From: Escherichia coli | GTDB lineage: Bacteria > Pseudomonadota > Gammaproteobacteria > Enterobacterales > Enterobacteriaceae | Length of the DNA: 64,000 nucleotides | NCBI RefSeq assembly: GCF_030013205.1 | Contig: NZ_CP122648.1 | Reading direction: 5' to 3' (one strand) | Part shown: positions 1-15,786 of the stretch, piece after piece | Numbering within the stretch: the stretch's first letter is position 1 | Layout: every line of letters starts with the position of its first letter | Translations under genes and position numbers: made by a program | Notes under the pieces: generated by a model | Seen by the model: the letters and a program-made list of their open reading frames with translations, nothing else | What the model was told of the DNA's origin: nothing | The model's database searches: none

Positions 1-146
1 GATTCATTCTTACCGCAGGCGCGGGTTCGAGGTTAAGAAAGCTCTCAGTCTCGACTATCGGCACTGGATAATCTCTGTCAGGCTGCCTTATTCCGAACGC
101 CCACCACGTGCGTCCCGCACTTTCCAGCAACGGATCTGGAGGTAAC

Positions 147-1196
147 GTGCGGGTATTACTTAGACCTGTTCTGGTGCCTGAGCTTGGGCTGGTGGTCCTT
201 AAGCCGGGCCGTGAATCCATACAGATATTTCATAATCCTCGAGTGCTGGTGGAACCGGAACCAAAAAGCATGCGTAATCTGCCATCCGGAGTCGTTCCTG
301 CCGTTCGCCAGCCGCTGGCGGAAGACAAAACATTGCTGCCGTTTTTTAGTAACGAACTGGTGATTCGTGCTGCTGGCGGCGTTGGCGCATTGTCCGACTG
401 GCTATTACGTCATGTTACATCCTGCCAGTGGCCTAATGGCGATTACCATCACACTGAAACAGTCATTCACCGTTATGGTACCGGCGCAATGGTGTTGTGC
501 TGGCACTGCGACAACCAACTGCGTGACCAGACATCGGAATCACTGGAGCTGCTTGCTCAACAAAATCTGACAGCATGGGTGATTGACGTCATCCGTCACG
601 CAATAAGCGGTACGCAGGAGCGGGAATTATCTTTGGCTGAATTATCCTGGTGGGCGGTCTGCAATCAGGTGGTGGATGCACTACCTGAGGCTGTATCGCG
701 TCGTTCGCTGGGATTACCAGCGGAAAAAATCTGCTCGGTGTACCGCGAAAGCGACATCGTACCGGGAGAGCAGACCGCCACCAGCATATTGAAACAACGC
801 ACAAAAAATCTTGCACCGTTGCCTTACGCCCACCAGCAACAAAAATCACCACAGGAAAAGACGGTGGTAAGAATCACCGTTGATCCAGAGTCTCCGGAAT
901 CTTTCATGAAGCTGCCTAAACGTCGCCGCTGGGTTAAGGAGAAATACACACGTTGGGTTAAGACACAGCCGTGTGCTTGCTGCGGTATGCCAGCCGACGA
1001 TCCGCATCATCTGATTGGTCACGGGCAGGGCGGAATGGGAACAAAAGCACATGATCTCTTTGTGTTGCCTTTGTGCAGAAAGCATCACAACGAGCTGCAT
1101 ACGGATACAGTGGCATTTGAAGATAAGTATGGCTCCCAACTGGAGCTGATATTTCGTTTTATCGATCGCGCGCTGGCAATTGGCGTACTGGCGTAA
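147..1196 (+). CDS. ydfU: DUF968-family prophage protein with C-terminal Cys/His cluster (HNH-like)
   Basis: ORF track 108..1196. GTG at 147 is preceded by GGAGGT and gives the 349 aa length recalled for K-12 YdfU. C-terminus carries CACCG...HH...CRKHH. Confidence 0.65.
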   Translation: MRVLLRPVLVPELGLVVLKPGRESIQIFHNPRVLVEPEPKSMRNLPSGVVPAVRQPLAEDKTLLPFFSNELVIRAAGGVGALSDWLLRHVTSCQWPNGDYHHTETVIHRYGTGAMVLCWHCDNQLRDQTSESLELLAQQNLTAWVIDVIRHAISGTQERELSLAELSWWAVCNQVVDALPEAVSRRSLGLPAEKICSVYRESDIVPGEQTATSILKQRTKNLAPLPYAHQQQKSPQEKTVVRITVDPESPESFMKLPKRRRWVKEKYTRWVKTQPCACCGMPADDPHHLIGHGQGGMGTKAHDLFVLPLCRKHHNELHTDTVAFEDKYGSQLELIFRFIDRALAIGVLA

Positions 1197-1209
1197 GTGG
1201 AGAACGAGC

Positions 1210-1962
1210 ATGAACCTTGAAGCCTTACCAAAATATTACTCCCCAAAATCTCCAAAATTGAGCGATGACGCTCCAGCGACAGGCACCGGTTGTTTAACAA
1301 TTACGGATGTAATGGCAGCGCAGGGGATGGTGCAGTCGAAAGCACCACTTGGGTTGGCCTTATTTCTGGCAAAAGTTGGTGTTCAGGACCCTCAGTTTGC
1401 GATTGAAGGCCTGCTAAATTACGCGATGGCACTGGATAACCCGACATTGAACAAATTGAGTGAAGAAATCCGGTTACAGATTATTCCTTACCTCGTGAGT
1501 TTTGCCTTTGCTGATTACTCCAGGTCTGCGGCAAGTAAGGCTCGCTGTGAGCATTGTTCAGGTACGGGATTTTATAATGTATTGCGCGAAGTGGTGAAAC
1601 ACTACAGACGCGGGGAATCTGTAATCAAGGAAGAATGGGTGAAGGAACTATGTCAGCATTGCCATGGTAAGGGCGAAGCCAGCACAGCGTGCAGAGGGTG
1701 TAAGGGTAAAGGGATTGTTCTGGATGAAAAAAGAACCCGGTTTCATGGCGTACCGGTATATAAGATTTGTGGGCGTTGTAATGGAAACCGGTTTAGTCGT
1801 TTACCGACCACGCTGGCACGACGTCATGTCCAGAAGCTGGTACCAGACCTGACCGATTATCAGTGGTATAAGGGGTATGCGGACGTCATTGGTAAACTGG
1901 TAACAAAGTGCTGGCAGGAAGAAGCATACGCGGAAGCGCAATTGAGGAAGGTGACGAGATAA
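1210..1962 (+). CDS. quuQ: Late-gene antitermination protein Q
   Basis: ORF 1180..1962; internal ATG at 1210 gives 250 aa. Cys-rich zinc-finger-like motifs (CEHCSGTG, CQHCHGKG, CRGCKGKG, CGRCNG). Position is immediately upstream of the late promoter/terminator and lysis genes. Confidence 0.8.
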   Translation: MNLEALPKYYSPKSPKLSDDAPATGTGCLTITDVMAAQGMVQSKAPLGLALFLAKVGVQDPQFAIEGLLNYAMALDNPTLNKLSEEIRLQIIPYLVSFAFADYSRSAASKARCEHCSGTGFYNVLREVVKHYRRGESVIKEEWVKELCQHCHGKGEASTACRGCKGKGIVLDEKRTRFHGVPVYKICGRCNGNRFSRLPTTLARRHVQKLVPDLTDYQWYKGYADVIGKLVTKCWQEEAYAEAQLRKVTR

Positions 1963-1993
1963 ATGATTTTTGCTGAAGATGGCGACATGATGT

Positions 1994-2022
1994 TTGCATT
2001 TTTCAAAAAATATGGATAAAAT
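1994..2022 (+). promoter_or_regulatory. Candidate PR-prime-like late promoter (-35 TTGCAT 1994-1999, 17 bp spacer, -10 TAAAAT 2017-2022)
   Basis: Sigma70-like hexamers read directly from the sequence, directly downstream of the Q gene and about 45 bp upstream of a strong intrinsic terminator, as in lambdoid late-control regions. Confidence 0.4.
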
Positions 2023-2066
2023 TTTTTCAACGATGGGCTTTGTATACCCGACGTTAAGAAAAAGTA

Positions 2067-2098
2067 GAAAACCCGCTGATGAGCGGGTTTTGTGCTTT
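2067..2098 (+). terminator. Intrinsic terminator (tR-prime-like) downstream of Q
   Basis: Stem ACCCGC / GCGGGT with loop TGATGA, followed by a T-rich tract TTTTGTGCTTT. Confidence 0.6.
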
Positions 2099-2383
2099 AA
2101 ATGGGGCAATGGTAATGTTGAATCTCATCCCGGGACTCATGTCTGTTAACTTATTATTTAGCTGGTGACTTGGTTATTTGCCTGATGTTTAAAATGTTTT
2201 CTTCCAGTACAATGTCCCTAAACACAATGAGTCTGCTTATTATATTATTAGCAGAGCTATTACGGCCAAAGTACAGCATAAGCTTTTAAAGCCAATCAAC
2301 CAGTCATCAAGACAGACGGGGTTATTCATAAAAACTCTCCATGTGTGATCCGATGGGGCCTGAAATTAAAGCTTTAATATAGC

Positions 2384-2596
2384 TCATGAAAGGTAAACAT
2401 TGGCAGCTGAAGGGCCACGCAGACCATTTATCCGGCAAAATTCCACGCGTAATCCGGTGGTAATTTCTTCTGCATCGCGGAGATTGAGCGCTGAAACATG
2501 AAGCTGGACATCGATACGACCATCGGATGGGGTGATAAGACCCTTGCCGCTTTTGCCGTCAAAGGTTTTGACAATTCCTGTCATTTTACGGGACAA
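2384..2596 (-). CDS. cspF: Cold-shock-domain protein CspF
   Basis: 70 aa [16 protein letters not shown]... with the cold-shock-domain fold pattern; matches recalled K-12 CspF. Confidence 0.9.
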
Positions 2597-2896
2597 AAAA
2601 ATTCCTTAATACTGATAACTTGGCGCACTATACACACGTTCCTGAAGAAAGCTATAGTTTTTTGATGGGGTTGAAGATGGCTGGATGTCTAAAATAAACA
2701 TTGCTTCATATGTTCAACTATGCGTTAATGATTGCGTCGGTTTGAAGAACAGACGATATACGAAGTAGTTTACTAAAGCAGTTCTCATTTCAGGTGTTAT
2801 TCACTTATTCCTTCTTTGAGTCTCTCCAATTAAGTACGAAGTCGTTTCTGTTATGCAAACCATTTATGCCGAAAGGCTCAAGTTAAGGAATGTAGA

Positions 2897-3112
2897 ATGT
2901 CAAATAAAATGACTGGTTTAGTAAAATGGTTTAACGCTGATAAAGGTTTCGGCTTTATTTCTCCTGTTGATGGTAGTAAAGATGTGTTTGTGCATTTTTC
3001 TGCGATTCAGAATGATAATTATCGAACCTTATTTGAAGGTCAAAAGGTTACCTTCTCTATAGAGAGTGGTGCTAAAGGTCCTGCAGCAGCAAATGTCATC
3101 ATTACTGATTAA
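2897..3112 (+). CDS. cspB: Cold-shock protein CspB
   Basis: 71 aa [24 protein letters not shown]... with RNP1-like motif (KGFGFI); long upstream leader typical of cold-shock genes. Confidence 0.9.
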
Positions 3113-3393
3113 AATTCATCGCTCGTCTGTATACGATAACGAAGAAGGCTGATGCCTGAGTAGAGATACGGACAGAGTAGTGAATATTGGATCTCTTTAA
3201 TAAAAAGTAAGGAGGTCCAATACATGAAACAATGGCTAGCATATTTGGCAAAATCTTAATCAGGAAAAGTATGCTAACCATTGTGGTGAAGTGCAGGTTT
3301 GCTGAATGAATAGTTTTACAGCAGAAGCTAACTGCTGGCATGGCAAAACAAAGTGCGTAAGTGGATGACTCCCACAAAAAGCACCACAATCTC

Positions 3394-3417
3394 AAACCCG
3401 CTCAGGCGGGTTTTTTA
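3394..3417 (+). terminator. Intrinsic terminator downstream of cspB
   Basis: Stem CCCGC / GCGGG with loop TCAG, followed by TTTTTT. Confidence 0.6.
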
Positions 3418-3475
3418 TTATCTGCTTTAAATATATTATTAAAATATAAAAAATACTTGTTACTAATAAAATCAA

Positions 3476-3646
3476 TCAGGCTACAGCTTTAAGATTTGTC
3501 TGGAATACTTTGTTGCAATGAGGGCAGATCAAAAGGGCACCTTTTTGTACTCTTGAAAAACTGTGTTCTGACTCTTGGGTGCAGTTTGGGCAGGAACATT
3601 TAACGAGATAATTACGGCGTGATTTTGAGTTTTTACGTTCTGACAT
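3476..3646 (-). CDS. ynfU: Small zinc-ribbon protein (CxCPxC ... CPxC), YnfU-like
   Basis: ORF 3476..3697; internal ATG at 3644-3646 with an AGGAAAAG Shine-Dalgarno-like sequence gives 56 aa MSERKNSKSRRNYLVKCSCPNCTQ...CPHCNKVF. The gene name is from memory and uncertain. Confidence 0.45.
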   Translation of the reverse strand: MSERKNSKSRRNYLVKCSCPNCTQESEHSFSRVQKGALLICPHCNKVFQTNLKAVA

Positions 3647-3865
3647 AGGCTTTTCCTGTATAAATGGCCGTATACAGTACACTAAATATGAAAACATTTC
3701 TCGTATTATTATTTTATATATGACTTTCTTTCAAAATAATTACCCACATTTTTAATGTGTATGTTTTTTTAGCGCCGTTGAGAACAACGTGTGCTGTCAA
3801 AACTACCCCGTAGACTCCGATCTTTTCAAACATATTGCACCATCCGTGTACATCGGGGTGAGGAT

Positions 3866-4081
3866 ATGAAATCAATGGATAAGTTAACAACAGGTGTTGC
3901 CTATGGCACATCGGCGGGTAATGCTGGTTTCTGGGCATTGCAGTTACTCGATAAAGTAACTCCGTCACAGTGGGCTGCAATCGGTGTGCTGGGTAGCCTG
4001 GTTTTTGGCCTGCTGACGTATCTGACAAATCTTTATTTCAAGATTAAAGAAGACAGGCGTAAGGCTGCGAGAGGAGAGTAA
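3866..4081 (+). CDS. essQ: Phage holin, phage-21 S-type (pinholin-like), with dual start motif MKSMDK
   Basis: ATG at 3866 preceded by GGGGTGAGGA; 71 aa with a hydrophobic transmembrane core and charged C-terminus; directly upstream of the endolysin. Confidence 0.8.
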
Positions 4082-4085
4082 TCCA

Positions 4086-4393
4086 ATGACTCAAGACTAT
4101 GAACTGGTTGTGAAAGGAGTCCGTAATTTTGAGAATAAAGTTACGGTAACTGTAGCCTTACAGGACAAAGAACGCTTTGACGGTGAAATTTTTGACCTGG
4201 ATGTCGCCATGGACCGTGTTGAAGGAGCTGCGCTGGAGTTTTATGAGGCAGCAGCCAGAAGGAGCGTCCGGCAAGTCTTCCTGGAAGTAGCAGAAAAATT
4301 GTCAGAAAAAGTTGAGTCTTATCTGCAGCATCAGTACTCCTTTAAGATTGAAAATCCTGCCAATAAGCACGAGCGTCCTCATCATAAATATCT

Positions 4394-4397
<4 letters not shown>
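4086..4397 (+). CDS. ydfR: Prophage protein of unknown function (DUF1327-like) located between holin and endolysin
   Basis: 103 aa ORF; its stop overlaps the endolysin start (4394..4397), suggesting translational coupling. Confidence 0.7.
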
Positions 4398-5421
<1,024 letters not shown>

Positions 5422-5782
5422 GGTAATATTAAATCGGAACATTTACATCGCGGAATGTAAAATTTAAATAAAAAGGACTCTTCCATGAGCCAAAATTCCT
5501 GAAATCTTAAGGGTAAGATAAAAGGTCTTAATCAGAATGACACGTTTTATTAATAAATAAAGCTATTCTTTCATTGCTGTGTTTTTCTTTACAAAAGTAA
5601 TCCTTGCTATGGGTGGTTAATCATGCGTTAATGGTGTTCTGGTTTGTTACAAATTTATCTGAAGCAGTCATTGTTATAATTTTATTATTTGTACCTCTTG
5701 AGATTTCCTTGTTGGTTTTTCTCTCTGATATTTTTTTCGGACCATTCTGCCCAAGGGCTAATTTCTTCAAAAGGTAATAATT

Positions 5783-5995
5783 ATGTCTAACAAAATGACT
5801 GGTTTAGTGAAATGGTTTAACCCTGAAAAAGGTTTTGGTTTCATCACGCCGAAAGATGGCAGCAAAGATGTGTTTGTCCATTTCTCAGCAATTCAGAGCA
5901 ACGATTTCAAAACATTAACTGAGAATCAGGAAGTTGAATTTGGTATTGAGAACGGACCTAAAGGTCCTGCCGCTGTTCATGTAGTGGCGCTTTGA
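5783..5995 (+). CDS. cspI: Cold-shock protein CspI
   Basis: 70 aa [26 protein letters not shown]..., a paralogue of cspB. Confidence 0.9.
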
Positions 5996-6194
5996 GGTAG
6001 ACAATATTACAAACCATATTCACTTTAGATGCCCGTGTTGTCATGGTTCCCAGTATAGAACATCATCTTTTGATGTTTCTGACATGAATCCTTTCGGGGC
6101 AAAATGTATCTTTTGTAAATCAATGATGATTACATTTGATAATATTTCACAATACTTAAATGCCAGCCGTCTGTCGTTGGATTTGAAAAAGTGA
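5985..6194 (+). other. Zinc-ribbon-like open frame (CPCC...CIFC) with no in-frame ATG/GTG/TTG upstream of the first Cys pair; possible pseudogene or unconventional start
   Basis: Frame is open from 5985 to the TGA at 6192-6194; encodes ...RCPCCHGSQYRTSSFDVSDMNPFGAKCIFCKSMMITF...; resembles the zinc-ribbon ORF at 3476..3646; followed by a hairpin plus T-run at about 6199-6226. Confidence 0.3.
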
Positions 6195-6341
6195 AAATGA
6201 AGGCTCCTTCGGGAGCTTTTTTGCTTGGTGTCTATTCGATGGATACTCACATACTACGGTAACATCATGAAAAAAATCATAGTTTTTTTTAACTCTGAAC
6301 CAGCAGTGGTAGTGCCAGCGATGACTGGAGTTAACACCATC

Positions 6342-6497
6342 ATGCGTGAATATCCAAATGGCGAAAAAACACACCTTACTGTAATGGCCGCAGGGTTTCC
6401 ATCTCTGACCGGAGATCATAAAGTCATTTATGTAGCCGCGGATCGACATGTTACTTCAGAAGAAATTCTGGAAGCAGCAATAAGGCTCTTGAGTTGA
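6342..6497 (+). CDS. ynfN: Small prophage protein (51 aa), YnfN-like
   Basis: ORF track 6225..6497; internal ATG at 6342 gives 51 aa MREYPNGEKTHLTVMAAGFPSLTGDH.... The start choice and the name are uncertain. Confidence 0.4.
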   Translation: MREYPNGEKTHLTVMAAGFPSLTGDHKVIYVAADRHVTSEEILEAAIRLLS

Positions 6498-6668
6498 TTT
6501 GATGCTATTGCATTGATAATTCAGGAAAATTCTCTTTGTCTGTTTGTGTAAAATTTAGACTATCGTATGTTGATTATTGCGATGTTTCATCTTATCTTTT
6601 ACACGTTTGCACCATATAATCGACTTACTGTGTAACTGGAAAGTCATAACAGACTAAAAGAGGAAATG

Positions 6669-6842
6669 ATGAATATTGAAAACTTAAAAACAAAAGCAGA
6701 AGCAGATATTTCTGAATATATAACAAAAAAAATTATTGAACTTAAGAAAAAGACCGGGAAAGAAGTTACCAGTATTCAGTTTACCGCACGGGAAAAAATG
6801 ACGGGTCTTGAAAGCTATGATGTCAAGATTAATTTAATCTGA
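6669..6842 (+). CDS. gnsB: GnsA/GnsB-family small protein (57 aa)
   Basis: Below the 60 aa track cut-off, so read by hand: ATGATG at 6666-6671, stop TGA at 6840-6842; MNIENLKTKAEADISEYITKKIIELKKKTGKEVTSIQFTAREKMTGLESYDVKINLI; AGGAAA Shine-Dalgarno-like sequence upstream. Confidence 0.65.
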   Translation: MNIENLKTKAEADISEYITKKIIELKKKTGKEVTSIQFTAREKMTGLESYDVKINLI

Positions 6843-6993
6843 TGTATTCAATAATAAAATTTATCCATAAACCTCGTTTTTACGGGGTTTTGTTATATTT
6901 GAATGGTTCCGAATATCTAAATCACAATTGTTGATGGTTTTTATTAAACCAATGCAGTCCGGCTCAGGAGTGAGAGAAGCCGGACGTTATGGT

Positions 6994-7419
6994 TTAGCGT
7001 GGTAAGATCTGTGTAGTTTTCTGGATGCTTTCAGTAAATAGTAATGAATTATCAAAGGTATAGTAATATCTTTTTTGTTCGTGGATATTTGTAACCCACC
7101 GAAAAACTCCTGCTTTAGCAAGGTTTCTTCTGTATTCCTGAAATGTGATCTCTCTGGATTTCAGCTTATTAGAGGTCGTTTCTATAAGATGCCTATCCTT
7201 TGAAAATTTGACAGACACAATGTTTTTTAGGCCCTTTAATAACACTGTATTATCATTTTTTAATACAATATGAACATTCTCTGTGGCTAAATAGTAAATG
7301 TAATGTGAGACATTGTGACGTTTTAGCTCAGAATAAAACCATTGATAGTTTAAATCGTTTCGAACTTTATCAAATATTTGTTTAAAAATGACTACCTGAT
7401 CCATAGATAAACCTTCCAT
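6994..7419 (-). CDS. ydfO: DUF1398-family prophage protein
   Basis: 141 aa ORF (alternative start at 7404 gives 136 aa); co-directional with and immediately downstream of the ribbon-helix-helix gene. Confidence 0.7.
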
Positions 7420-8083: not shown

Positions 8084-8629
8084 ATGGAAGTCAACAAAAA
8101 GCAGCTGGCTGACATTTTCGGTGCGAGTATCCGTACCATTCAGAACTGGCAGGAACAGGGAATGCCCGTTCTGCGAGGCGGTGGCAAGGGTAATGAGGTG
8201 CTTTATGACTCTGCCGCCGTTATAAGATGGTATGCCGAAAGGGATGCTGAAATTGAGAACGAAAAGCTGCGCCGGGAAGTTGAAGAACTGCGGCAGGCCA
8301 GCGAGACAGATCTCCAGCCAGGGACTATTGAGTACGAACGCCATCGACTTACGCGTGCGCAGGCCGACGCACAGGAGCTGAAAAATGCCAGAGACTCCGC
8401 TGAAGTGGTGGAAACCGCATTCTGTACTTTCGTGCTGTCGCGGATCGCAGGTGAAATTGCCAGTATTCTCGACGGGATCCCCCTGTCGGTGCAGCGGCGT
8501 TTTCCGGAACTGGAAAACCGACATGTTGATTTCCTGAAACGGGATATCATCAAAGCCATGAACAAAGCAGCCGCGCTGGATGAACTGATACCGGGGTTGC
8601 TGAGTGAATATATCGAACAGTCAGGTTAA
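8084..8629 (+). CDS. nohA: Terminase small subunit (lambda Nu1 homologue)
   Basis: 181 aa MEVNKKQLADIFGASIRTIQNWQEQGMPV..., essentially lambda Nu1 with a winged-HTH N-terminus. Confidence 0.85.
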   Translation: MEVNKKQLADIFGASIRTIQNWQEQGMPVLRGGGKGNEVLYDSAAVIRWYAERDAEIENEKLRREVEELRQASETDLQPGTIEYERHRLTRAQADAQELKNARDSAEVVETAFCTFVLSRIAGEIASILDGIPLSVQRRFPELENRHVDFLKRDIIKAMNKAAALDELIPGLLSEYIEQSG

Positions 8630-10088
8630 CAGGCTGCGGCATTTTGTCCGCGCCGGGCTTCGCTCACTGTTCAGGCCGGAGCCACAGACCGCCGTTGAAT
8701 GGGCGGATGCTAATTACTATCTCCCGAAAGAATCCGCATACCAGGAAGGGCGCTGGGAAACACTGCCCTTTCAGCGGGCCATCATGAATGCGATGGGCAG
8801 CGACTACATCCGTGAGGTGAATGTGGTGAAGTCTGCCCGTGTTGGTTATTCCAAAATGCTGCTGGGTGTTTATGCCTACTTCATAGAGCATAAGCAGCGC
8901 AACACCCTTATCTGGTTGCCGACGGATGGTGATGCCGAGAACTTTATGAAAACTCACGTTGAGCCGACCATCCGTGATATTCCTTCGCTGCTTGCGCTGG
9001 CCCCGTGGTATGGCAAAAAGCACCGGGATAACACGCTCACCATGAAGCGTTTCACCAATGGTCGTGGCTTCTGGTGCCTGGGCGGTAAAGCGGCAAAAAA
9101 CTACCGTGAAAAGTCGGTGGATGTGGCGGGTTATGATGAACTTGCTGCTTTTGATGATGATATTGAACAGGAAGGCTCTCCGACGTTCCTGGGTGACAAG
9201 CGTATTGAAGGCTCGGTCTGGCCAAAGTCCATCCGTGGCTCCACGCCCAAAGTGAGAGGCACCTGCCAGATTGAGCGTGCAGCCAGTGAATCCCCGCATT
9301 TTATGCGTTTTCATGTTGCCTGCCCGCACTGCGGGGAGGAGCAGTACCTTAAATTTGGCGATAAAGAGACGCCGTTTGGCCTCAAATGGACGCCGGATGA
9401 TCCCTCCAGCGTGTTTTATCTCTGCGAGCATAATGCCTGCGTCATCCGCCAGCAGGAGCTGGACTTTACTGATGCCCGTTATATCTGCGAAAAGACCGGG
9501 ATCTGGACCCGTGATGGCATTCTCTGGTTTTCGTCATCCGGTGAAGAGATTGAGCCGCCGGACAGTGTGACCTTTCACATCTGGACGGCGTACAGCCCGT
9601 TCACCACCTGGGTGCAGATTGTCAAAGACTGGATGAAAACGAAAGGGGATACGGGAAAACGTAAAACCTTCGTGAACACCACGCTCGGTGAGACGTGGGA
9701 AGCGAAAATCGGCGAACGTCCGGATGCTGAAGTGATGGCAGAGCGGAAAGAGCATTATTCAGCGCCCGTTCCTGACCGTGTGGCTTACCTGACCGCCGGT
9801 ATCGACTCCCAGCTGGACCGCTACGAAATGCGCGTATGGGGATGGGGGCCGGGTGAGGAAAGCTGGCTGATTGACCGGCAGATTATTATGGGCCGCCACG
9901 ACGATGAACAGACGCTGCTGCGTGTGGATGAGGCCATCAATAAAACCTATACCCGCCGGAATGGTGCAGAAATGTCGATATCCCGTATCTGCTGGGATAC
10001 TGGCGGGATTGACCCGACCATTGTGTATGAACGCTCGAAAAAGCATGGGCTGTTCCGGGTGATCCCCATTAAAGGGGCATCCGTCTAA
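8604..10088 (+). pseudogene. Terminase large subunit (lambda gpA homologue), N-terminal 494 codons only; truncated by an internal prophage deletion
   Basis: GTG start overlapping nohA; protein matches the recalled lambda gpA N-terminus up to ...[10 protein letters not shown], then a stop. Lambda continues YGKPVASMPRKRNKNG, which is absent here. Confidence 0.8.
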
Positions 10089-10149
10089 GGGACGCTTCCT
10101 GAACAACATTAACGCGGTCAGTAAAACAGACTTTGCTGATAAGCGTGGT

Positions 10150-11904
10150 ATGCGTTATGTGCGGGTTAACGCTCCTGCAGGTGCAACATCTGGAAAATAT
10201 TACCCTGTTGTTGTTATGCGTTCTGCTGGCTCAGTAAGCGAACTGGCATCAAGGGTCATTATCACCACGGCACCGCGAACCGCAGGCGATCCGATGAATA
10301 ACTGCGAGTTTAACGGATTTGTTATGCCTGGTGGCTGGACTGACAGGGGGCGTTATGCTTATGGAATGTTCTGGCAATATCAAAACAATGAACGAGCCAT
10401 CCACTCAATAATGATGAGTAATAAGGGCGATGATTTGCGCTCTGTGTTCTATGTTGATGGCGCTGCTTTCCCTGTTTTTGCGTTTATCGAAGATGGCCTG
10501 TCAATATCCGCACCTGGTGCTGATCTCGTTGTTAATGATACGACCTATAAGTTTGGGGCAACAAATCCAGCGACTGAATGTATCGCGGCGGACGTTATCC
10601 TTGATTTTAAGAGTGGGCGTGGTTTTTATGAGTCTCATTCGTTAATCGTTAACGATAACTTGTCGTGCAAAAAACTTTTTGCCACAGACGAAATTGTAGC
10701 GCGTGGTGGTAATCAGATTCGAATGATAGGTGGGGAGTATGGTGCATTATGGCGTAATGATGGCGCTAAAACTTACCTGCTGCTTACCAATCAAGGTGAT
10801 GTTTATGGTGGCTGGAATACATTAAGACCGTTTGCTATTGATAACGCAACCGGCGAACTGGTTATTGGAACCAAACTGTCCGCAAGTCTGAACGGTAATG
10901 CATTAACAGCAACAAAGCTGCAAACGCCAAGACTGGTTTCTGGTGTTGAGTTTGATGGTTCCAAAGATATTACTTTAACCGCCGCGCATGTGGCTGCTTT
11001 TGCCAGAAGGGCAACGGATACATATGCCGATGCGGATGGTGGCGTTCCCTGGAATGCCGAATCAGGCGCTTACAATGTCACCCGCTCTGGCAACAGCTAT
11101 ATTCTGGTTAACTTCTATACCGGAGTCGGAAGTTGCCGGACATTGCAGATGAAGGCGCATTACAGAAATGGAGGTCTGTTCTACCGTTCCTCAAGAGATG
11201 GCTATGGTTTTGAGGAAGACTGGGCAGAAGTTTATACCTCGAAAAATCTTCCACCAGAAAGCTACCCAGTCGGTGCACCAATCCCGTGGCCATCAGATAC
11301 CGTTCCGTCTGGTTATGCCCTGATGCAGGGGCAGACTTTTGACAAATCTGCTTACCCGAAACTTGCAGCCGCTTATCCGTCAGGCGTGATCCCTGATATG
11401 CGTGGCTGGACGATTAAGGGCAAACCTGCCAGTGGTCGGGCCGTATTGTCTCAGGAACAGGACGGCATTAAATCGCACACCCACAGCGCCAGCGCATCCA
11501 GTACGGATTTGGGGACGAAAACCACATCGTCGTTTGATTACGGCACTAAATCCACGAATAACACCGGGGCGCATACCCATAGTGTTAGCGGTACGGCTGC
11601 TTCAGCCGGTGCACATACCCATTCGATAACATTTGTTTCAGGTGGCACCAAAGGTGCTCCGGGAAGTGGATCACCTGATTATTCTAAATACAGTGTTAAC
11701 ACTTCTTCTGCAGGCGCTCATACGCACTCTGTATCGGGTACTGCTGCAAGCGCAGGTGCACACGCACATACTGTAGGTATTGGTGCGCATACGCACTCGG
11801 TTGCGATTGGTTCACATGGACACACCATCACCGTTAACGCTGCTGGTAACGCGGAAAACACCGTCAAAAACATCGCATTTAACTATATTGTGAGGCTTGC
11901 ATAA
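10150..11904 (+). CDS. stfQ: Side tail fibre protein fragment (Stf-like C-terminal region)
   Basis: 584 aa ORF with repeated GAHTHS motifs near the C-terminus, typical of lambda Stf / T-even long-tail-fibre tips; followed by a Tfa gene; upstream end abuts the terminase deletion junction. Confidence 0.6.
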
Positions 11905-12479
11905 TGGCATTCAGAATGAGTGAACAACCACGGACCATAAAAATTTATAATCTGCTGGCCGGAACTAATGAATTTATTGGTGAAGGTGATGCATATATTC
12001 CGCCTCATACAGGTCTGCCAGCAAACAGTACCGATATTGCACCGCCAGATATTCCGGCTGGCTTCGTGGCTGTTTTCAACAGTGATGAGTCATCGTGGCA
12101 TCTCGTTGAAGATCATCGGGGTAAAACGGTTTATGACGTGGCTTCCGGCGACGCGTTATTTATTTCTGAACTCGGTCCGTTACCGGAAAATGTTACCTGG
12201 TTATCGCCGGAAGGGGAGTTTCAGAAGTGGAACGGCACAGCCTGGGTGAAGGATACGGAAGCAGAAAAACTGTTCCGGATCCGGGAGGCGGAAGAAACAA
12301 AAAACAACCTGATGCAGGTAGCCAGTGAGCATATTGCGCCGCTTCAGGATGCTGCAGATCTGGAAATCGCAACGGAGGAAGAAATCTCGTTGCTGGAAGC
12401 ATGGAAAAAGTATCGGGTATTGCTGAACCGTGTTGATACGTCAACTGCACAGGATATTGAATGGCCAGCACTGCCGTAG
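11904..12479 (+). CDS. tfaQ: Tail fibre assembly protein (Tfa family)
   Basis: 191 aa; start overlaps the stf stop; conserved Tfa C-terminal region. Confidence 0.8.
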
Positions 12480-12576
12480 GGTAAAACATATAAATTCTAT
12501 AATTAGATGTATCTTTCCATTTACGGCAAGGAAGGGGGCTTGGAAGACGTAAAGCATCTCACACCGAGATTATTTT

Positions 12577-13167
12577 TTATATGTCAGGTGTCTGAAGTTT
12601 TGCTTTGGCTCTTAAAATGGTTTGCCGCGAGGTTTTGAATTCCCGGGCAATGGCACTTATACTTACACCTGACTTAATTCGTTCGAATACCGCCTGTTTC
12701 TGTTCTTCATTTAACACAGGTGGTCGACCAAAACGTTTCCCTGCGCCGCGGGCACTTACTATCCCGGAATGAGTGCGTTCAAGTAAAAGGTCTCGTTCAA
12801 ATTCAGCGACTGCTGAAATTACTTGCATCATCATTTTTCCTGTTGGACTGGTCAGGTCAATGCCCCCCAATGCTAAGCAATGCACTCTGATACCTGTTTC
12901 GGTCAGTTGTTCCACTGTTTTCCTGATATCCATTGCATTACAACCAAGGCGATCCAGTTTTGTCACAATCAATTGATCACCACATTTCAGGCGAGCAAGC
13001 AACCGGTTAAAACCAGGACGCTCACTGGTTGCTGCTGAGCCGCTAATGTGTTCTTCGATTATTTGCTGAGGTTTGATTTTAAAACCTGCACTTTCGATTT
13101 CCCGGCGTTGATTTTCGGTGGTCTGATCCAGCGTTGATATCCGACAGTAAGCAAAAATTCGAGACAT
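12577..13167 (-). CDS. pinQ: Serine recombinase / DNA invertase (Pin family)
   Basis: 196 aa; N-terminal resolvase catalytic domain (YCRISTLDQ with catalytic Ser) and C-terminal HTH; convergent with tfa. Confidence 0.8.
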
Positions 13168-13483
13168 AGTGAGACTCTATACGAAATTGGTGTTCATATC
13201 ATAATGCATCTCAGAAAATAATTATGATTATTTTTGTGCATATTTGTATGTACACGTTCGAAAATAAACGAATGCGTATGCAACCCCGTAATTTTGGTGA
13301 GACCCAAAATCGATTTTGTGAAAAATGGCTTTAACTCGGTTTGTTTTTCGAGTTCCGGGCGGACTCAAGGAAGAAGAATAGTGTTGCGTGTTATTTTAAC
13401 CAGATTTCAAGTTGTTTGGTCGTGGAAAAGTGGAGCAAAATGTTGTTAAAGTGGAAAAATGATAAAAAAGTAAGTTTATTATA

Positions 13484-13717
13484 TTACATTTTACCATTTA
13501 AATTTTGGTTGTCTTTAAGAACTGATATCGCTGTTTGTAATAATTCTTTGTTATCCAGCCATGATTTTTTCTTTATGTTTCCTTCAATGTAATCAAGCAA
13601 TGTTCTGGTATTGATAGGTCTTCCCTGTTTTGCTACTTCCACTACAGCATCCCCTAGGATAATTCTTACTTCAGGAAGCTGCGCAGGGAACCACTTTAGG
13701 GTGTCTTTTGATTTCAT
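13484..13717 (-). CDS. ydfK: Small prophage protein YdfK-like (77 aa)
   Basis: ORF 13484..13750; internal ATG at 13715-13717 with an AAGGAA Shine-Dalgarno-like sequence gives 77 aa. Confidence 0.55.
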   Translation of the reverse strand: MKSKDTLKWFPAQLPEVRIILGDAVVEVAKQGRPINTRTLLDYIEGNIKKKSWLDNKELLQTAISVLKDNQNLNGKM

Positions 13718-14502
13718 GAAGATATTCCTTAAAATATTATTGATTTTCATTGCGATATTGTATGTCTGATTCAGGATATGTTGACTTATACATCGGTTTT
13801 GTCTGGGTTATTGGATATGCCAATCCCTAATTTTATTAGGGCATGACTAAAAATGCTGAATATGATAAGGAGAGATGTGATTATCAGTATGCTGTTCATA
13901 TAGCCTCGAATTAGTAATGTGTTATATATGATATAGTTGACAATTTTTATCTTGGGTGTTCTTAAAGTTCGTAGATAAACATTGTCGTTTCAGGTATACA
14001 GGAATGCTAACAGGTGGCAGCAAAAATCAGGCGGTTTATGGCGCAAGCTGAAGCGGCAACTGCAAACTATCTTATGCAGAGACTCTACACGGATTGGGTT
14101 TAAAAGTATACATAGATAACAGTTTTTATCTGAAAAAGAAAAATATCAAGGTGATATAGCCTATATGCCTTTGATGCGGAGGAATGAATGTGATGGGAGT
14201 GATGTATCTGAATAGTTGAAAAACCGCAGACACGCCTTATGCAAGAACGTGCTGCGGTTGGCTGGTAAATTTTTCGATAGTGTGAGTATTGAATGATTTC
14301 CAGCCGTTCTTGATTTTACGCATAAATCCATGAAAAAACTACTTATCTGTTGGGGAGTTTTTTTGGGGCATATATGGGACAGAAATAGGCCCCAGATAGA
14401 CACTGAGATCGAACTTAGGATGCTTTTTAAAAAATGCAACTATCTGAAAAAACCTAGAAAACGCCAAGGAAACCACAGGATGGGAAAAAACACCTGTGAA
14501 TT

Positions 14503-15786
14503 ATGGATTTCCAGTTATATTCGCTCGGCGCAGCGTTAGTGTTTCATGAAATATTTTTTCCTGAATCATCAACGGCAATGGCGTTAATTCTGGCAATGGG
14601 AACCTACGGTGCAGGTTATGTGGCGCGTATTGTCGGAGCATTTATTTTCGGCAAAATGGGCGACAGAATCGGGCGTAAAAAAGTGCTCTTTATTACCATC
14701 ACTATGATGGGGATCTGTACTACCTTAATTGGTGTGCTGCCGACCTATGCACAAATTGGTGTGTTTGCGCCAATTTTGCTGGTGACGCTGCGTATTATTC
14801 AGGGGCTGGGGGCAGGCGCGGAAATTTCCGGTGCCGGCACGATGCTGGCGGAATATGCACCAAAAGGTAAGCGCGGAATTATCTCCTCATTTGTTGCTAT
14901 GGGGACTAACTGCGGAACCTTGAGCGCAACGGCAATCTGGGCCTTTATGTTCTTCATTCTCAGTAAAGAGGAACTGCTTGCGTGGGGATGGCGTATACCG
15001 TTCCTGGCGAGCGTTGTCGTGATGGTCTTTGCTATCTGGTTGCGTATGAATCTGAAAGAAAGCCCGGTCTTTGAGAAGGTTAACGACAGCAACCAACCGA
15101 CAGCAAAACCTGCACCTGCTGGTAGCATGTTCCAGAGCAAATCCTTCTGGCTGGCAACAGGGCTGCGTTTTGGTCAGGCTGGTAACTCCGGTTTAATTCA
15201 GACTTTCCTTGCAGGCTATTTAGTGCAGACGTTATTGTTTAACAAAGCAATTCCAACAGATGCATTGATGATCAGTTCGATTCTCGGCTTTATGACCATT
15301 CCGTTCCTTGGTTGGTTATCCGATAAAATAGGTCGCCGGATCCCGTATATTATTATGAATACCTCTGCGATTGTGCTGGCGTGGCCAATGCTTTCTATCA
15401 TCGTAGATAAAAGCTATGCCCCGAGCACCATTATGGTTGCACTGATTGTGATTCATAACTGTGCGGTGCTGGGATTATTTGCTCTGGAAAACATTACCAT
15501 GGCAGAAATGTTCGGCTGTAAAAACCGCTTTACCCGGATGGCGATTTCTAAAGAAATTGGTGGTCTTATCGCTTCCGGTTTTGGTCCTATCCTGGCGGGT
15601 ATTTTCTGCACCATGACGGAATCCTGGTATCCGATCGCCATTATGATCATGGCATATTCAGTGATTGGTTTAATCTCTGCGCTGAAAATGCCAGAAGTGA
15701 GAGACCGTGATTTAAGTGCACTGGAAGATGCCGCGGAAGATCAACCGCGTGTTGTAACAGCTGCGCAACCTTCAAGAAGTCTGTAA
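14503..15786 (+). CDS. ydfJ: MFS metabolite:H+ symporter-family transporter, apparently N-terminally truncated by the prophage insertion
   Basis: 427 aa polytopic membrane protein starting in what looks like the first transmembrane helix (MDFQLYSLGAALVFHEIFFP); an in-frame stop lies immediately upstream; a phage non-coding region precedes it. Confidence 0.7.
   Translation: MDFQLYSLGAALVFHEIFFPESSTAMALILAMGTYGAGYVARIVGAFIFGKMGDRIGRKKVLFITITMMGICTTLIGVLPTYAQIGVFAPILLVTLRIIQGLGAGAEISGAGTMLAEYAPKGKRGIISSFVAMGTNCGTLSATAIWAFMFFILSKEELLAWGWRIPFLASVVVMVFAIWLRMNLKESPVFEKVNDSNQPTAKPAPAGSMFQSKSFWLATGLRFGQAGNSGLIQTFLAGYLVQTLLFNKAIPTDALMISSILGFMTIPFLGWLSDKIGRRIPYIIMNTSAIVLAWPMLSIIVDKSYAPSTIMVALIVIHNCAVLGLFALENITMAEMFGCKNRFTRMAISKEIGGLIASGFGPILAGIFCTMTESWYPIAIMIMAYSVIGLISALKMPEVRDRDLSALEDAAEDQPRVVTAAQPSRSL

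Follow-up and report, generated by a model that had tools for sequence, protein, structure and literature searches.

Cold-shock genes as cargo behind the late-control cassette of the Qin-type prophage in Escherichia coli

We analyzed a stretch of 64,000 nucleotides of Escherichia coli DNA (contig NZ_CP122648.1, hereafter the window), in which a preliminary description had placed a pair of cold-shock genes, cspF and cspB, between a Q-dependent late promoter with its terminator and the lysis cassette of a lambdoid prophage. The region is the late-control cassette and cargo slot of the cryptic E. coli prophage Qin, which is already known and annotated in K-12. With a probability of about 85%, we read it as a Qin-type late-control cassette, i.e., the gene for antiterminator Q, the late promoter pR' and the terminator tR', with autonomous csp genes as cargo in the slot past tR', through which Q would carry RNA polymerase in intact relatives. 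The positions initially given for cspF, cspB, cspI and the holin gene at 3866 were confirmed, as was the presence of three cold-shock domain (CSD) genes in one prophage.

Positions 1–7000 of the window are Qin-type prophage DNA that matches the chromosomes of porcine enterotoxigenic E. coli (ETEC) and the complete genome of phage PhiR42_1 at 100%. The PhiR42_1 genome (48.7 kb) was 100% identical over 1180–4100 and 99.94% identical over 1180–6200. It has a full lambda-like head and tail gene set, and the PhiR phages are a lambda-related panel that forms plaques. Qin of K-12 MG1655 was also 99.94% identical over 1180–6200, with the same gene order. It shows a few point differences, and ynfN is longer in the window, as in ETEC strains; the window is identical to the porcine ETEC chromosomes rather than to K-12. 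According to the annotation of the best ETEC match and of K-12, the genes are arranged in the order ydfU, ydfT (quuQ, "antitermination protein Q"), ynfS, cspF, cspB, ynfU, essQ, ydfR, rrrQ, rzpQ/rzoQ, cspI, ynfQ, ynfR, ynfN, gnsB. Among 5426 complete E. coli genomes, 1591 contained most of the query 1–7000. The segment comprising the 3' end of Q, pR' and tR' was found in 1813 of these genomes and the junction from pR' to cspF in about 1405–1424, i.e., in approximately a quarter.

The Qin copy in the window is defective, because a pseudogene of the terminase large subunit is fused to a truncated tail-fibre gene (about 8604–14503), with all head and tail genes gone, and because the element ends at a disrupted ydfJ. 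On the 3' side of the fusion follow tfaQ, pinQ, ydfK and ynfT, then the truncated ydfJ at the prophage end. The Qin gene ydfK is another cold-shock-induced gene; its product is not a CSD protein.

We delimited the cargo slot by comparison with other phages. In a search of the phage collection, the ydfU-Q-pR'-tR' module was about 90% identical in SfV, mEp460, Ayreon, many Shiga toxin (Stx) phages of type Stx2c, one Stx2k phage, one Stx1 phage and one Salmonella phage. All of these matches stopped at query positions 912–919, i.e., at 2091–2098 of the window. In PhiR47_1, which shares both the Q module and the holin family, homology stopped at 2091 and resumed at 3840, 26 bp before the ATG of the holin gene. 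From these blastn breakpoints we hence conclude that a replaceable, AT-rich slot of 1748 bp lies at 2092–3839. Its G+C content is 33–43% (2000–3800) compared with 47–55% in ydfU and Q and 45–50% in the lysis genes, and this AT-rich composition fits an insert. The slot contains ynfS, cspF, cspB and ynfU. The insertion had been described for 1963–3420; the csp insertion as such stood, but its end at 3420 was set too early, as the slot extends over 2092–3839 and includes ynfS and ynfU.

In relatives, the site past tR' is filled with unrelated cargo. SfV carries orf47 and the methylase-like orf48, mEp460 open reading frames (ORFs) and a DNA methylase, and the Stx2k phage ORFs, three tRNAs, stx2AB and an iraM-like gene. 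Lys8385Vzw has stx1AB at this position, PhiR47_1 a 141-amino-acid ORF and four tRNAs, and Salmonella phage 118970_sal3 a near-empty slot with an 85-amino-acid ORF only. The same csp cargo as in the window was found in PhiR42_1, 2H10, HannyBb, PhiR63_1 and Tritos. Tritos has a clean deletion of 258 bp (window 2136–2393) by which ynfS and the last 10 nt of cspF are gone; ynfS and cspF are therefore dispensable for a sequenced phage. The breakpoints at 2091 and 3840, the varied cargo and the gene order bear out that the csp pair is an insert between the Q-dependent promoter and terminator and the lysis cassette. The accompanying expectation that the holin gene normally follows tR' almost at once did not hold, since the gap is a known hypervariable site, occupied in same-Q relatives by stx, tRNAs or methylases. 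The slot past tR' is a textbook cargo site of lambdoid phages, and in DLP12 the corresponding position is presumably taken by nmpC. A differently filled site and a base composition unlike that of the flanks are both marks of a moron, and a third, an own promoter together with an own 3' end, was found for cspB.

The gene cspB (2897–3112, plus strand) encodes a cold-inducible CspA-family protein of 71 amino acids (Pfam CSD, E 9.8e-32; annotation). It is preceded on the same strand by a promoter region and a 161-nt cold-shock leader with a cold box (2701–2896; leader 2736–2896). A second AT-rich cargo block past the spanin genes (5638–5995, plus strand; G+C content 31–39%) contains cspI, with a leader at 5638–5782 and the coding sequence at 5783–5995 (CSD, E 1.6e-31). 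Rfam family RF01766, the cspA thermoregulator, matched 2736–3128 with 158.8 bits and 5638–6022 with 114.2 bits, the gathering score being 78. Cold-shock leaders of 159 nt for cspA, 160 nt for cspB, 155 nt for cspG and 145 nt for cspI have been described, and CspB and CspI are cold-induced (PMC6719143). Moreover, both proteins carry aromatic RNP1 and RNP2 motifs (KGFGFI and VFVHF in CspB). Because of their cspA-type thermoregulator leaders, cspB and cspI are autonomous cold-shock units.

To place RNA 3' ends on the window, we used the K-12 Term-seq tables of Adams et al. 2021 (PMC7815308, supplementary file 1) and the sequence flanking each end. The 3' untranslated region of cspB (3113–3227, plus strand) is structured, with two hairpins and a folding energy of -43.2 kcal/mol (z -6.5). 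A very strong 3' end at K-12 1641224–1641226(-), i.e., window 3225–3227, lies 4–6 nt past the second hairpin. This was the strongest local cspB 3' end, and it is not located at the canonical terminator 3394–3420. An 11-codon ORF at 3224–3259 with a perfect Shine-Dalgarno sequence is probably no gene: its AAGGAGG forms the 3' side of the stem in a 14-bp hairpin, and in vivo the RNA stops at the ATG. Further 3' ends on the plus strand were found at 2817 and 5677, inside the cspB and cspI leaders, and are consistent with premature termination or processing in the cold-shock leaders. We rejected ynfQ (6006–6194) as a fourth CSD gene. RefSeq names it "cold-shock protein", but its translation, from an apparent non-ATG start (ATT), contains four cysteines (CPCC...CIFC) and no CSD; the name seems to come from its position past cspI.

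The second gene of the pair, cspF, lies on the minus strand (2384–2596) and encodes 70 amino acids from a TTG start (Pfam PF00313, the CSD family, E 5.6e-22). Its translation reads KGKGLI(TP) and VQLHV instead of the aromatic RNP1 KGFGFI and RNP2 VFVHF, in agreement with the description of CspF as lacking the aromatic RNP motifs (PMC6719143). CspF is 77% identical to CspH. RF01766 had no match at cspF. A TATAGT about 30 nt before the start is conserved in cspF, in cspH and in phage 2H10, and for this reason the cspF leader is probably short. Of the long leaders initially ascribed to both genes, that of cspB was thus recovered by RF01766 and that of cspF was not. Downstream of cspF lies the small protein gene ynfS (2240–2329, minus strand), annotated in K-12 and ETEC. 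The cargo also includes ynfU (3476–3646, minus strand), which encodes a small zinc-ribbon protein (Pfam PF23499, E 3.5e-31; annotation). The promoters of both cspF and ynfU are predictions. A terminator scan found a bidirectional hairpin terminator at 3394–3420, with a Term-seq end at K-12 1641060(+), i.e., window 3391; the in vivo 3' end at this hairpin is on the minus strand and belongs to ynfU. An Rfam Trp_leader match at 3335–3419 (21.7 bits, cut-off 41, E 0.85) was rejected as a generic terminator match.

Could the csp genes be working parts of the late programme rather than autonomous cargo? CspB and CspI would then act as RNA chaperones or antiterminators for late transcription, translation or lysis timing in the cold. 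CspA-family proteins are known to melt RNA hairpins and to act as antiterminators, and cspB and cspI stand in late orientation on either side of the lysis cassette. The five complete phages with csp cargo named above have retained the arrangement. Moreover, DNA similar to cspB and cspG (about 71% identity) was found in unrelated larger phages, i.e., MK524177 (PHB10), OV696614 (Cyrano) and MZ779062 (pJN2-26), and what appears to be a pair like cspH/cspG is present in PHB10, so that several types of phage take part in the circulation of csp genes. However, close relatives that share this Q and holin family have unrelated cargo and no csp genes in their slot, and Tritos does without ynfS and the end of cspF. 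Furthermore, the host-type cspA cold-shock leaders of cspB and cspI equip these genes to be expressed while the prophage is silent, and cspF is antisense to the late transcript and without RNA-binding motifs. We therefore consider a late function of the csp genes unlikely and favor autonomous cargo within a late-control cassette, the elements of which are described in the following.

The Q gene, ydfT/quuQ (1210–1962, plus strand), encodes a late antiterminator of 250 amino acids that is a Q-lambda family member (Pfam PF03589, E 3.6e-54). Searches of the PDB with QuuQ returned the Q-lambda structures 7UBM (E 4.6e-36) and 4MO1 (E 1.1e-23) and no match to Q21 structures, and the Pfam scan listed neither PF06530 (Q21) nor PF06323 (Q82); the families are defined in PMC9388147. 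Membership of QuuQ in the Q21 or Q82 family is hence ruled out. Phages 21 and 82 had been proposed as comparators, which turned out to be appropriate for the lysis cassette only, with its phage-21-type holin, and not for Q and the late promoter, which are properly compared with lambda. Relative to Q-lambda, QuuQ has a 39-amino-acid zinc-finger insertion of the CXXCXGXG type (residues 121–159, window 1570–1686). It duplicates the CXXCXGXG knuckle, resulting in four such motifs, and Pfam DnaJ_CXXCXGXG (PF00684) matched with 35.4 bits, above its cut-off. Upstream of Q lies ydfU (147–1196, plus strand; DUF968/HNH-like, Pfam PF06147, E 1.6e-76; annotation), part of a conserved module common to SfV, mEp460 and Stx phages.

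The late promoter begins 32 nt past the Q stop codon. On sequence evidence, the site claimed at 1994–2022 (plus strand) was confirmed as a pR'-type promoter, with a -35 element TTGCAT at 1994–1999, a 17-bp spacer and a -10 element TAAAAT at 2017–2022. Lambda pR' reads TTGACT-17 bp-TAAATT-tgactc-AACGATGGG and the window reads TTGCAT-17 bp-TAAAAT-tttttc-AACGATGGG, i.e., in the same register. A motif TAAANT-N5-CAACGATGGG occurred once in the 64-kb window, with 0 occurrences expected from 100 shuffles. Ten phages with this Q were aligned, and the -35 element, the spacer and the pause element were nearly invariant. The -10 element is TAAAAT in the window, in 2H10 and in copy 2 of HannyBb, TAAGAT in the majority of same-Q relatives (SfV, mEp460, Stx phages, PhiR47_1, Tritos), and TAGGAT in the Salmonella phage. 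Downstream, at 2029–2037 (plus strand), the alignment gives a sigma70-dependent pause element, AACGAT followed by GGG (AACGATGGG), identical to lambda pR' +1 to +9. Q loads at AACGAT, a sigma-dependent pause element that resembles a -10 element (PMC9388147). By its match to lambda, the element in the window is thus predicted to cause pausing, Q would load at this pause, and transcription is predicted to start at about 2029. In HannyBb (2274–2440 and 3968–4130) and PhiR63_1, the late-promoter region is present in two tandem copies. The first is a diverged pR' after the full Q, followed by about 1.5 kb of other DNA; the second consists of a 58-bp remnant of the Q 3' end, a pR'-tR' segment identical to that of the window and then the csp cargo.

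Terminator tR' (2067–2098, plus strand) was identified by hairpin scan, folding and Term-seq. Its stem at 2068–2091 has 10 bp with the GC-rich core CCCGCT/AGCGGG, and a T-run extends to 2098. RNA 2029–2098 folds with -29.7 kcal/mol (z = -6.6). Just past the hairpin, a 3' end at K-12 1642356(-), i.e., window 2095, was present in three Term-seq data sets (values 103591, 55368 and 123305). This shows that tR' is a working terminator in vivo in K-12, and the strong terminator described at this position is supported by hairpin, T-run and mapped end alike. In the window, the T-run is shorter and interrupted (TTTTGTGCTTT) compared with the same-Q relatives. Among the ten same-Q phages, the tR' hairpins vary in sequence but keep their pairing, and in SfV the hairpin is annotated as a terminator. 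The distance from tR' to the holin gene is 1767 bp. The scan rated the hairpin a terminator on either strand, and it could therefore also end minus-strand transcription of cspF-ynfS. Between pR' and tR', we predict a transcript of about 67 nt (2029–2095, plus strand), with its 3' end from K-12 Term-seq and its 5' end from homology to lambda, as a counterpart of lambda 6S RNA and StxS. No Rfam family matched this RNA. In phages of this kind, pR' is constitutively active and its transcription is terminated at tR', yielding lambda 6S RNA or StxS (PMC7547250).

We propose that in a lysogen pR' would likewise fire constitutively and transcription would stop at tR', releasing the short RNA. The slot behind it would consist of small autonomous units, of which cspB is in late orientation and both cspF-ynfS and ynfU face the other way. 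On cold shift, cspB and cspI would be expressed from the silent prophage independently of Q, which would make them morons. Upon induction of intact relatives such as PhiR42_1 and 2H10, Q loaded at the pR' pause would take the polymerase past tR'. The Q-modified polymerase would then run antisense to cspF, through the 3' structures of cspB and the terminator at 3394–3420, which on the plus strand would be a further obstacle, to the holin gene and the late operon. The stx genes of Stx phages with the same Q module are read in this way; stx is located in the late transcript (PMC7547250). We infer that Q lets the polymerase read through into the late genes, on the basis of gene order and of the complete phages with the same arrangement.

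Several observations weigh against this reading. The promoter spacer, where lambda has its Q-binding element, is just 11/17 identical to lambda; among the same-Q phages it is nearly invariant. The -35-like TTGACT that lambda has just 5' of the pause element reads TTTTTT in the window. In addition, the 39-amino-acid insertion of QuuQ sits in the DNA-binding arm, which in lambda contacts the Q-binding element and sigma region 4. Because of these three differences, the details of Q loading may differ from lambda. A pR' transcription start around K-12 1642422 was not found in the supplement data sought (ROSE, Cappable-seq, SMRT-Cappable-seq, Conway 2014), and a literature search yielded nothing specific on a Qin late promoter. 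Since no mapped 5' end was found, the 3' end at 2095 could partly come from read-through of ydfU-ydfT. One K-12 Term-seq set contains a plus-strand 3' end at 2263, a position past tR' at which the RNA is antisense to ynfS; some transcription therefore passes tR' without induction. Finally, the structural genes are lost in the prophage of the window, and Q-dependent read-through may no longer happen here.

Part of this evidence also fits an account in which 1994–2098 does no more than close the transcription unit of Q, with an ordinary terminator and a promoter match due to chance, and the lysis and late genes are transcribed from a promoter downstream of cspB. Besides the missing transcription start, the terminator, which starts 105 nt past the Q stop codon, could simply end the Q mRNA. 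Moreover, the promoter scan was overall at chance level, with 11 sites found and 9.6 expected in shuffled sequence. The sites include TTTGCA/TTGCAT...TAAAAT at 1993/1994–2022, and a weak, chance-level match on the plus strand at 3713–3740. However, the site at 1994–2022 is significant because of its homology to lambda pR' and not because of the scan match: the -35, the 17-bp spacing, the -10, the 6-nt gap and AACGATGGG stand in exact lambda register, where no chance match is expected, and are conserved across the same-Q phages. We found no other pR'-like motif in the 64-kb window and no conserved promoter upstream of the holin gene. Between PhiR47_1 and the window, conservation 5' of the holin gene covers at most 26 bp, so that they share no holin promoter. 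A second late promoter downstream of cspB was therefore rejected. In addition, a Q gene without a Q-responsive promoter would be functionless. We regard this account as very improbable and retain pR' as the late promoter of the Qin-type cassette.

The cassette resembles the lambda arrangement of Q, pR', 6S RNA and tR' in the Q family, the promoter geometry (-35, 17 bp, -10, 6 nt), the pause element and the downstream terminator. It differs in the spacer and in the missing TTGACT, as described above, and in further respects. The short RNA has about 67 nt in Qin compared with 194 nt for lambda 6S RNA, the slot past tR' holds 1.75 kb of cargo compared with about 0.4 kb in lambda, and the zinc-finger insertion of Qin Q is absent from lambda Q. 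With Stx phages, Qin shares the position of the cargo, past pR'/tR' and before the holin gene, and Stx2c, Stx2k and one Stx1 phage have the Q-pR'-tR' module itself at about 90% identity. In contrast to stx2, which depends on pR' and Q, the Qin cargo has its own cold-regulated control, and two of its three transcription units are antisense. StxS belongs to a different Q/pR' type with a pR'-tR' interval of 258 nt, and it has no sequence relation to the short RNA of Qin.

Outside annotated prophages, K-12 has a cspH-cspG-ymcF-ymcE-gnsA island. Its divergent csp pair has the same layout as cspF-cspB and its downstream genes are paralogous to ynfQ and gnsB, whereas Q, pR' and the lysis cassette are absent. 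CspG is 77% identical to CspB and 79% identical to CspI. The island (L015 3964–5241) aligned with window 2388–3011, i.e., from cspF across the intergenic region into the 5' part of cspB (76%), then with 5779–6142, i.e., cspI-ynfQ (74%), and with gnsB (6651–6843). Upstream, cspG is cspB-like (66% vs 49%), and downstream it is cspI-like (67% vs 43%), with the switch from cspB to cspI within the gene. In the window, cspB and cspI are direct repeats, 73% identical over 191 bp. We infer that recombination between the flanking csp genes may have deleted the lysis cassette in an ancient Qin-like prophage. That the csp pair is, conversely, ancestral chromosomal DNA picked up or neighbored by the prophage, for which the paralogous cspH-cspG pair and the core status of CspA-family genes in E. 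coli might speak, has next to no probability, as the pair is enclosed by the prophage, with Q on one side and the holin gene on the other, and also occurs in packaged phage genomes, the island itself looks like the remnant of a Qin-type phage region (a chimera ending in a gnsB paralogue), and no phage in the collection has a cspH-cspG-type block contiguous.

A wider picture would join three elements: CspB and CspI as cold-active RNA chaperones of the late transcript, the 73%-identical direct repeats as drivers of lysis-cassette loss, and the RNA of about 67 nt, the 3' end of which is clear in uninduced K-12, as an StxS-like regulator. As a whole, we consider this doubtful, and slightly more so than a late function of the csp genes.

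The lysis cassette begins with essQ (3866–4081, plus strand), which encodes a phage-21-type holin with the dual-start motif MKSM (Pfam PF04971, E 4.4e-34). On the same strand follow ydfR (DUF1327, 4086–4397), the lysozyme gene rrrQ (4394–4927) and rzpQ (4924–5421) with embedded rzoQ (5117–5371), all assigned by Pfam and annotation. The N-terminus of RrrQ is a hydrophobic, signal-anchor-like segment. The likeness to phage 21, with its pinholin S21 and signal-arrest-release endolysin, is confined to the lysis genes (PF04971, MKSM), as Q and the late promoter of Qin fall outside the Q21 family.

The K-12 annotation already covers the genes, where they sit in the prophage and how cold shock regulates them, and as a discovery the region matters little. 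It is a clean worked example, with slot boundaries given to the base (2091/3840). Leads from here are a possible function of the short pR'-tR' RNA of Qin and a possible effect of phage-borne Csp proteins on phage growth in the cold. Depending on the phage, the cargo driven by this one Q-pR'-tR' module consists of cold-shock genes, tRNAs, methylases or Shiga toxins.

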